64,000 bases of DNA from Isurus oxyrinchus (Eukaryota): contig JANJGN010000014.1 in NCBI GenBank assembly GCA_026770705.1, forward strand, positions 83,018,001 through 83,082,000, read 5' to 3'. This document shows positions 22,691 to 23,428 of this stretch, piece after piece. Position 1 is the stretch's first letter. Each line of letters opens with the position of its first letter. The notes under the pieces are model-generated. The model searched no databases. It worked only from the letters and a program-made list of their open reading frames with translations, and was not told where the DNA came from. The translations under genes were made by a program, and so were the position numbers.

Positions 22691-23428
22691 TCTTTTTATT
22701 TGTTCATGGACATGGACGGTAACTCTTTTGAGTACAAACCCGTTTCCATCTGTTTCAGATGAAGTTACATTGTTTCATAGTTTGCCATTGTGAGATTTGA
22801 ACTCTTGATTTTGGGGTTACAAACCCTGTACCATAACCACTTGGCTATTTAGGCCAAGCCCATGGACATTGCTGGTAACTCTTTCGAGTACAAACCCATT
22901 TCCATCTATTTCAGATGAAGTTACATTGTTTCATAGTTTGCCATTGTAAGATTTGAACTCTTGATCTTGGGGTTACAAACCCAGTACCATAACCACTTGG
23001 CTATTTAGGCCAAGCCCATGGACGTTGCTGGTAAGTGCAGTATTTATTTCCAATCAATAATTGCCCTTGAGGAGGTGATAATGAGCTGTCTAATTGAAAC
23101 ATTGCAATCTATCTGATATAGATATGTCTACAGTGCTGTTAAGTCAGAAATTCCAAGATTTTGACCCAGCAACAATGAAGTAATAGCAATATTTTTCCAA
23201 GTTGGGGTGCTTTGTGATTTGGGGGGGTTACTCCCACGTGGTGGTGTTACCATGTGCCTGCTGCACTTGTTCTTCCAGGTGATAGAGGTTATGGATCTAG
23301 AAGGCACTGCCGAAGGAGCCTTGGCAAGTTGCTCGAGTGCATCTTACAGGTGGTACATACTACAGTCATCATGCATCAATGGAGGAGGTAGTGAATGTTT
23401 AAGGTAGTGGATGAGGTGCTAATCAAGT
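22691..23428 (-). mobile_element. CR1-Zenon-like LINE 3' fragment (hosts the tandem tRNA-headed elements)
   Basis: Colinear with 4160-4570 (ttccaagattttgacccagcaacaatgaag, ggaggtagtgaatgttt). Confidence 0.8.
22718..23016 (-). mobile_element. Two tandem copies (22718-22860, 22874-23016) of a 143-bp tRNA-derived SINE-like element
   Basis: Minus strand shows box A TAGCCAAGTGG, anticodon arm ggg-TTTGTAA-ccc (Thr-TGT-like) and box B GTTCAAATC. Copies differ at 6 of 143 positions. Flanked and separated by catggac(r)ttgct repeats. Confidence 0.85.

Follow-up and report, generated by a model that had tools for sequence, protein, structure and literature searches.

The tandem pair of short repeats on the minus strand of the window (the whole 64,000-nt stretch of shark DNA analyzed here) consists of two copies of a young tRNA-derived SINE whose partner is almost certainly a LINE of the Tx1 clade. 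We assign the element to the tRNA-derived SINEs (SINE2) because it has a tRNA-type head with boxes A and B, occurs as short non-coding copies that are dispersed and flanked by target-site duplications, and shares its 3' end with a LINE. Units of the family mostly lie in arrays together with LINE fragments and copies of cellular RNAs, and it is very likely that these arrays derive from several RNA templates. The features referred to below are, in window coordinates:

22878..23015, minus strand: SINE copy 1, 138 nt; positions 1-75 derived from tRNA-Thr(TGT), then a linker, then the 3' domain
22722..22859, minus strand: SINE copy 2, 138 nt
23017..23033, minus strand: upstream target-site duplication, 17 nt, first bases TAC; an extra G at 23016 stands ahead of the head
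22860..22877, minus strand: middle target duplication plus the same extra G
22711..22721, minus strand: downstream target duplication, 6 nt shorter
22878..22889, minus strand: terminal ACTC-GAAA-GAGT hairpin of copy 1 (copy 2, 22722-22733, with one loop G>A)
22954..22965, minus strand: 12-mer ATCAAGAGTTCA, unit positions 51-62 (copy 2, 22798-22809); the duplicated site of the dominant LINE within the SINE
22878..22965, minus strand: unit positions 51-138, common to the SINE and the 3' end of the dominant Tx1-type LINE (copy 2, 22722-22809)
23017..23427, minus strand: older host interspersed repeat, broken near its 3' end by the SINE pair (remainder at ~22690-22710)
9099..9122, plus strand: empty copy of the preferred target, nick before 9109, inside a Harbinger-type DNA transposon

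The locus reads, in order, host flank, 17-nt duplication, G, unit, duplication and G, unit, and duplication minus 6 nt. The copies are direct repeats with a period of 156 nt and six differences, and comparison with another copy of the host repeat, elsewhere in the window, identifies the spacer between them as host sequence, so that the tandem minus-strand arrangement with a host-derived spacer described in the first-pass annotation is confirmed. That annotation had also envisaged two insertions at one nick or a dimeric template. Repeated insertion is borne out by the family, in which most loci are arrays of unlike units, but a fixed dimer template is unlikely at this locus because the spacer is local. 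Relative to the column majority, copy 1 carries three C>T changes (at 68, 108, and 118) and copy 2 carries 33A, 50A, and 131A, none in common with copy 1. A dimer sharing no derived change fits two rounds of insertion without proving them. Linked source haplotypes for the two window copies were not found, and separate templates are therefore shown for the family and not for this pair. The shorter downstream duplication reflects either a subsequent deletion or a second nick placed 6 nt inward. The target site scores 7.5 on our target matrix, for which the leave-one-out median is 6.05. The interrupted host repeat, which may resemble the tail of the shark HE1 SINE, has further copies in the window at 4205-4570 and 43538-43869.

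The SINE unit runs for 138 nt from GCTTGG to GAAAGAGT. Where the target starts with TAT, TAG, or TGA the element ends at GAGT, so the TAC that follows the unit in the window belongs to the target duplication. The 143 nt first given for the unit must be shortened accordingly, since the TAC that closed its proposed RNA junction is target DNA; the reported match between 3' end and target is real, with the TAC lying outside the element, and the reported lack of a poly-A or microsatellite tail stands. Box A occupies unit positions 14-24 and box B 56-66, and the leader pairs with box A, as had been noticed, in a hairpin of positions 2-7 with 15-20. In alignment with a tRNA-Thr(TGT) copy from another locus (L200), the head scores 59, a value that none of 1000 shuffles reached; the TGT anticodon of that copy was called by ARAGORN at a relaxed threshold. 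The tRNA-Thr(TGT) identity originally proposed for the head thus has the boxes and the alignment in its favor, but ARAGORN and Rfam, run on the window, called neither SINE copy. Many units elsewhere in the family reach the Rfam tRNA cut-off, and the window copies fall below it. The tRNA homology of the head runs across unit position 51, and a search for a source tRNA gene with the SINE 3' domain as its trailer gave no match. Transcription by Pol III, as the first reading had it, is predicted from the boxed head and from spacers that end in T-runs. Elsewhere in the window, a weak tRNA-like head at 39705-39793 on the minus strand (Rfam 25.4 bits, under the cut-off) is probably another SINE.

The 3' domain had been proposed to close into a three-way RNA junction that acts as a recognition module. 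This junction is one possible fold. It is the minimum free energy (MFE) structure solely when the last 58 nt of copy 2 are folded in isolation (z -2.05, 4/200 shuffles), in which case the centroid differs, and not for copy 1 or for either whole copy; the closing-stem probability is at most 0.02 in both whole window copies. Across 113 units, the mean fold probabilities are 0.36 for the closing stem, 0.93 for the first hairpin, 0.30 for the second, and 0.34 for the competing terminal hairpin. Covariation in the junction stems, a check that had been advised, is absent among 280 units: both members of the pair 118:131 are changed in 20 units, against an expectation of 19; 62 of the 280 carry 120T, which disrupts a pair; and the common 127G variant retains a G-U pair in the terminal hairpin with no compensatory change. 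More distant Tx1 families were sought for the same purpose, and all 30 fetched loci proved to be 94-98% identical to this family. A recurrent deletion of the first hairpin, apparent by eye in several loci, had its exact pattern in two loci only and was not used as evidence. The junction may form, but it is unproven. Separately, the window contains a hammerhead-type motif (CTGATGA...GAAA) at ~43267 on the minus strand, in the 3' end of a repeat that is presumably of Penelope type; a related repeat is found at 2856-2989 and 36243-36376.

Contrary to the initial impression that a LINE tail is lacking, a search for autonomous elements with the same 3' end, as had been suggested, found that SINE positions 51-138 (88 nt) are the end of the 3' UTR of a Tx1-clade LINE. 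The junction between LINE and tail has 1,905 exact matches, with only 15 LINE ends in which the next base is other than A, and the tail follows the junction in 26 of 30 loci; in the other four, the 12-mer leads into another LINE. Longer inserts in the arrays encode a zf-RVT C-terminus and continue into unit 51-138. One locus (L236) holds a whole LINE with an intact ORF2 of 1303 aa, comprising endonuclease, reverse transcriptase (RT), and zinc motif; this ORF2 has 49.5% identity with Xenopus Tx1L over 1300 aa. More than 30 intact ORF2 frames occur among 150 scored matches, and the best partial match, at 68%, is a shark sequence, in keeping with a cartilaginous fish as host. The layout is a CCHC ORF1 followed by an ORF2 with APE endonuclease, RT, and C-terminal zinc motif, the two zinc matches lying below the Pfam curated cut-off. 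In pairwise comparison, Tx1 elements are its nearest named relatives.

In one LINE subfamily, which lacks the SINE tail, the last sequence ahead of the target is AACTC-GAAA-GAGT (368 matches, some from one array), and this end folds with target-derived bases into a 6-bp hairpin; a variant end with a 5-nt loop has three matches. The SINE terminates in the same 12 nt as this short-ended subfamily, and the ACTC-GAAA-GAGT hairpin is the sole part common to all partner-LINE 3' ends. The three-way junction is absent from the 368 LINE ends, which bear just the last hairpin, and as covariation is absent as well, its role as the recognition module is not supported. The terminal hairpin is probably the recognition signal of the Tx1 machinery, a reading that draws on this comparison and not on energy because the mean hairpin probability in the SINE is 0.34.

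The two types of LINE end also bear on the history of the pair. Short-ended copies are about twice as diverged as tail-bearing ones (6.7% vs 3.1%, from 8 vs 19 copies, the tree being unresolved), and of the 13 nt just ahead of the SINE-type tail, 8 agree with the old hairpin. All 30 LINE 5' ends examined come after the 12-mer at unit 51-62, upstream of which lies the head in 11 cases (nine from one array), the tail end in 14, and a LINE end in five. In the simplest history suggested by these sequences, the LINE entered the SINE at 50|51, where 12 nt became duplicated; its original hairpin was then lost and the SINE tail adopted instead. Origin of the SINE by deletion between 12-mers is less parsimonious. 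A possible older sister family (L188) was rejected, being a single chimera of a tRNA-like locus. In another locus (L230:1501-1660), a tRNA-like sequence with its 3' trailer (146 nt, 95%) has been copied elsewhere (L231) with the 12-nt LINE hairpin added, and we describe the product as a one-copy proto-SINE.

The family is large and young. Its 5' 29-mer has 15,568 exact matches genome-wide against none for the reversed control, and 280 full units from 75 loci diverge by 2.7% from the column majority. The first-pass annotation had allowed that all other copies might be monomers and the dimer a simple local duplication. In a position-ordered sample, defined as all 52 clusters among the first 100 matches on contig C1, 16 loci are single-piece and 36 are multi-piece, with up to 41 pieces as sized from the assembly; at least two heads occur in 24 loci, and 140 of 156 heads lie within multi-piece loci. 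Correction for detection gives a monomer share of 35% and rough totals of 22,800 heads and 8,800 loci. The counts are slightly generous, as three loci (L090, L092, and L098) take in separate nearby insertions. No account of the family was found in main-text literature, the Repbase, Dfam, and SINEBase entries standing outside this comparison, and a scan of JGI metagenomes for the element gave no matches.

Tabulation of target duplications and tandem copies, which had also been advised, found arrays in the majority and a duplication length of 13-15 nt in 29 of 36 outer duplications, these being the ones detected automatically among 82 arrays examined. Across these 36 the end of the element is GAGT, and the target starts T-A-C-A in 34, 33, 27, and 28 of them, respectively. 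Ten of the 52 ordered loci lie at one site of a repeat that encodes a DDE_Tnp_4 transposase and that, from this domain, we take to be a Harbinger-type DNA transposon; elsewhere the target is relaxed. A second ORF piece of the target repeat has no Pfam match. Such a transposon is present in the window at 7474-10916, and another copy lies at 18524-19904.

Units of the same array lie at a distance of 8.1 from one another, and units of different arrays at 7.7. No array is fixed for a linked 5-nt insertion, which is polymorphic in 14 of them. More than one haplotype class is present in 20 of 23 ordered arrays, where independent draws expect 17.9. Because units are unlike within arrays and haplotype classes are mixed, array units come from different RNAs. 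The arrays contain SINE haplotypes, LINE fragments (among them fragments terminating in unit 51-138), and tRNA, 5S, and U6 copies, often split by the local ~14-nt duplication; whole U6, 5S, and tRNA copies stand between units in the 15 loci chosen for scanning. A T-run terminates 26 of 56 non-local spacers and 3 of the 31 outer duplications (p 0.0004), and random 15-mers have such an end at a rate of 10.5%; this is the pattern expected if Pol III read-through RNAs were joined end to end. Internal spacers automatically classed as local also end in this way in 20 of 60 cases, which weakens the contrast. At one locus (L235), a tRNA with its trailer is fused to the SINE within one 14-nt duplication, and this chimera and that of L230/L231 arose by end-to-end joining of RNAs. 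Under a strict script, the outer duplication recurs internally at 7 of 42 non-Harbinger loci, and independent re-hits are expected at 0.2-0.9%, or at 26% with the strictest threshold, on a matrix built from 31 sites. Because the recurrence exceeds the expectation for independent re-hits, rounds at one site appear to be coupled.

Duplication of DNA also contributes. Rare variants are shared with a partner by 63 of 247 array units, and duplication is therefore real in large arrays; among two-unit loci a rare variant is shared in 1 of 16, and the window pair shares none. In three loci (L016, L083, and L069) the same non-target bases are repeated from one junction to the next, and both window junctions show this too. 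A test of the timing of array units gave an ICC of 0.087 (p 0.09) and no gradient. Spacers are locus-specific, the lone fixed joint being the [1-138][51-138] form. Two candidate classifications were rejected: a dimeric SINE from a fixed dimer master, as spacers differ by locus, and a SINE-derived satellite (sSat), as units are unlike and haplotypes mixed, with duplication secondary in the 63 of 247 units.

Some loci deserve separate mention. Nine head-to-tail full-length LINE-SINE blocks (L162-L170; C2, 61.83-61.89 Mb) are spaced at ~7.4 kb with the same spacers, which include a 12-nt mini-unit between two duplications. At L216-L229 (C1, 28.19-28.21 Mb) there are at least 16 truncated short-ended LINE copies with the Harbinger target duplication between them. 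The 41-piece array L101 contains, at 4109-7203, tRNA copies with leader and trailer within a ~2.1-kb block that is present twice, by true duplication or assembly error. The window itself has a U6 snRNA copy at 12819-12919 on the plus strand (Rfam 94.8 bits), which ends in an A-run and not a T-run and is probably a retrocopy.

We lean toward the hypothesis that mixed arrays are built by the LINE RT copying RNAs serially at one nick, with re-priming in a single event. Pol III would transcribe the SINE and continue through its target duplication to the next T-run. The Tx1 ORF2p would bind the terminal ACUC-GAAA-GAGU hairpin and nick a relaxed TGCAnC|TACA-like site, at which the read-through UAC(A) of the RNA would pair with the nick for priming. 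On reaching the RNA 5' end, the enzyme would jump to the U-tail of another RNA (SINE, LINE, pre-tRNA, 5S, or U6) or, alternatively, would copy the target overhang, regenerating the primer end so that the next RNA is primed and the local duplication reappears. We favor re-priming in one event because the copied overhang restores the primer end. Big arrays would enlarge later by duplication of DNA blocks, and at some point a LINE would have entered the SINE at 50|51 with a 12-nt duplication, after which its hairpin decayed and the SINE tail was taken over. Two rounds of priming at a single nick would then account for the window dimer.

One event and repeated re-insertion yield an identical end product, and the exact repetition of junction bases agrees with the copying of an existing junction, which counts against re-priming. 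It is nevertheless less likely, in our judgment, that the arrays grew by separate insertions over generations, each regenerating the target, with the sequence of the element attracting the machinery through RNA-DNA pairing and open Pol III chromatin and with template jumps explaining foreign spacers. Insertion generation by generation is the reading given to tandem SINEU-3 in the relevant sections of PMC4494074. It would account for junction bases that repeat exactly beside unlike units and for old and new LINE subfamilies within one duplication at L181 and L108; re-cutting is plausible at the Harbinger hot spot (10/52 loci), and the element 3' end followed by TACA reaches 6.9 on the target matrix, over the median. 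Yet separate insertions would have to recur at unique sites ~20 to 80 times more often than sequence-only re-hits, and multi-unit and single sites are equal on the target matrix (4.5 vs 4.5, p 0.42). Moreover, the arrays lack an age gradient, and the old-type copy at L181 is not more diverged than many new-type copies.

Unequal crossing-over or slippage at the DNA level between the target duplications of one copy is improbable as the source of the arrays and the window dimer. Such recombination is the explanation offered, in the part of PMC11481361 concerned, for bivalve TSD-(SINE-TSD)n arrays; block duplications are visible in L101, L083, and L068, the two window copies agree in their 5' junction, and shared variants would be lacking if the duplication had followed insertion closely. 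It cannot, however, put mixed haplotypes, LINEs, tRNA, 5S, and U6 into one array, among two-unit loci a shared rare variant is confined to the one noted above and the window pair has none, and haplotype mixing refutes it as the main route. We give hardly any credence to the first-pass suggestion that the three-way junction is a hammerhead-related module and that a Penelope-like element moved the SINE. The junction is the MFE structure for some isolated 3' domains, the first hairpin is strongly predicted (0.93), and the element has the word ACTCGAAA in common with the Penelope-type motif at 43267. That motif has the CTGAnGA core, but the element has neither this core nor an Rfam match, and its ACTC can pair with the downstream GAGT. 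Neither the double changes at 118:131 (20 vs 19) nor the pair-breaking 120T (62/280) support the stems; and tail, target, and arrays are all held in common with the Tx1 LINE, the elements sharing the 3' end being of Tx1 type (Penelope ends were compared within the window). Serial copying with re-priming is thus the reading that we retain. More tentatively still, the system may comprise a vertebrate Tx1 RT with iterative integration as its default, for which a 12-nt GAAA hairpin suffices, which routinely makes tRNA-plus-hairpin proto-SINEs and the dominant form of which took its tail from the SINE that it had entered. Such an enzyme would write, at one nick, chains of tens of SINE, LINE, pre-tRNA, 5S, and U6 cDNAs with the target duplication in between.

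The final steps of non-LTR insertion, that is, 5' joining and second-strand synthesis, are still poorly settled, and with thousands of natural multi-round products and intact ORF2 frames these end-steps become directly testable with a vertebrate enzyme. A LINE acquiring its 3' end from its SINE would reverse the usual direction, and a route of SINE birth is visible in single events (L230/L231 and L235). If serial copying is correct, the arrays would preserve the state of the RNA pool at a single moment, and work on RNA-templated gene insertion could draw on a processive multi-template RT guided by a 12-nt RNA signal.

The shark system resembles SINEU-3/Tx1-Mar of crocodilians, as presented in the sections of PMC4494074 on these elements, in that a short element mobilized by Tx1 prefers a DNA transposon and forms tandem copies that sandwich the TSD, with template-switch 5' additions and Tx1 families bearing a SINE head; the same sections report that Tx1-9_AMi targets Harbinger elements. 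According to that source, SINEU elements have snRNA heads, and no LINE-shared 3' end was found there for SINEU-1, whereas the shark element has a tRNA head that carries boxes A and B, and 88 nt of it are common to the SINE and its LINE. Shark arrays, unlike those described for SINEU, reach 41-48 pieces and hold most copies, and the Harbinger site used in the shark is internal, as against ~300 bp from the 5' end in the crocodilian system (PMC4494074). Xenopus Tx1L, which in the same account inserted into Tx1D (PMC4494074), is similar in ORF2 (49.5% over 1300 aa), in its DNA-transposon target, and in forming a composite of a LINE inside another element. The specificity of the shark LINE is relaxed (10/52 loci at the hot spot), and its composite is with a SINE whose tail serves as the LINE 3' end.

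Tandem SINEs of Scapharca broughtonii share the TSD-(SINE-TSD)n layout, but in the passages of PMC11481361 on them such arrays make up 3% of copies, consist of highly similar units, and are ascribed to recombination, whereas shark units are unlike and interleaved with LINEs and cellular RNAs. About half of the copies of the jerboa Dip SINE are multimeric, up to eight, as cited in the pertinent text of PMC10702118. U6/L1 and other RNA/L1 chimeras and template jumping by R2 likewise involve one RT that joins several RNAs, capture of U6, and head-to-tail products; as far as the relevant portions of 10.1101/2025.02.02.635956 and PMC11371274 go, those products are rare, mostly two-part, or made in vitro, whereas multi-part chains with local target duplications are usual in the shark. 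The chondrichthyan CmiSINE and SacSINE1 also have tRNA-derived heads and a LINE-shared tail, but with Ala-tRNA/CORE or Deu bodies and L2 tails, and Tx1 or tandem arrays are not mentioned in the section of PMC5499810 that describes them. Each separate ingredient therefore has a precedent, and no host function is indicated; the novelty lies in how large and how mixed the arrays are, in the 12-nt signal, and in the capture of a SINE tail by a LINE.
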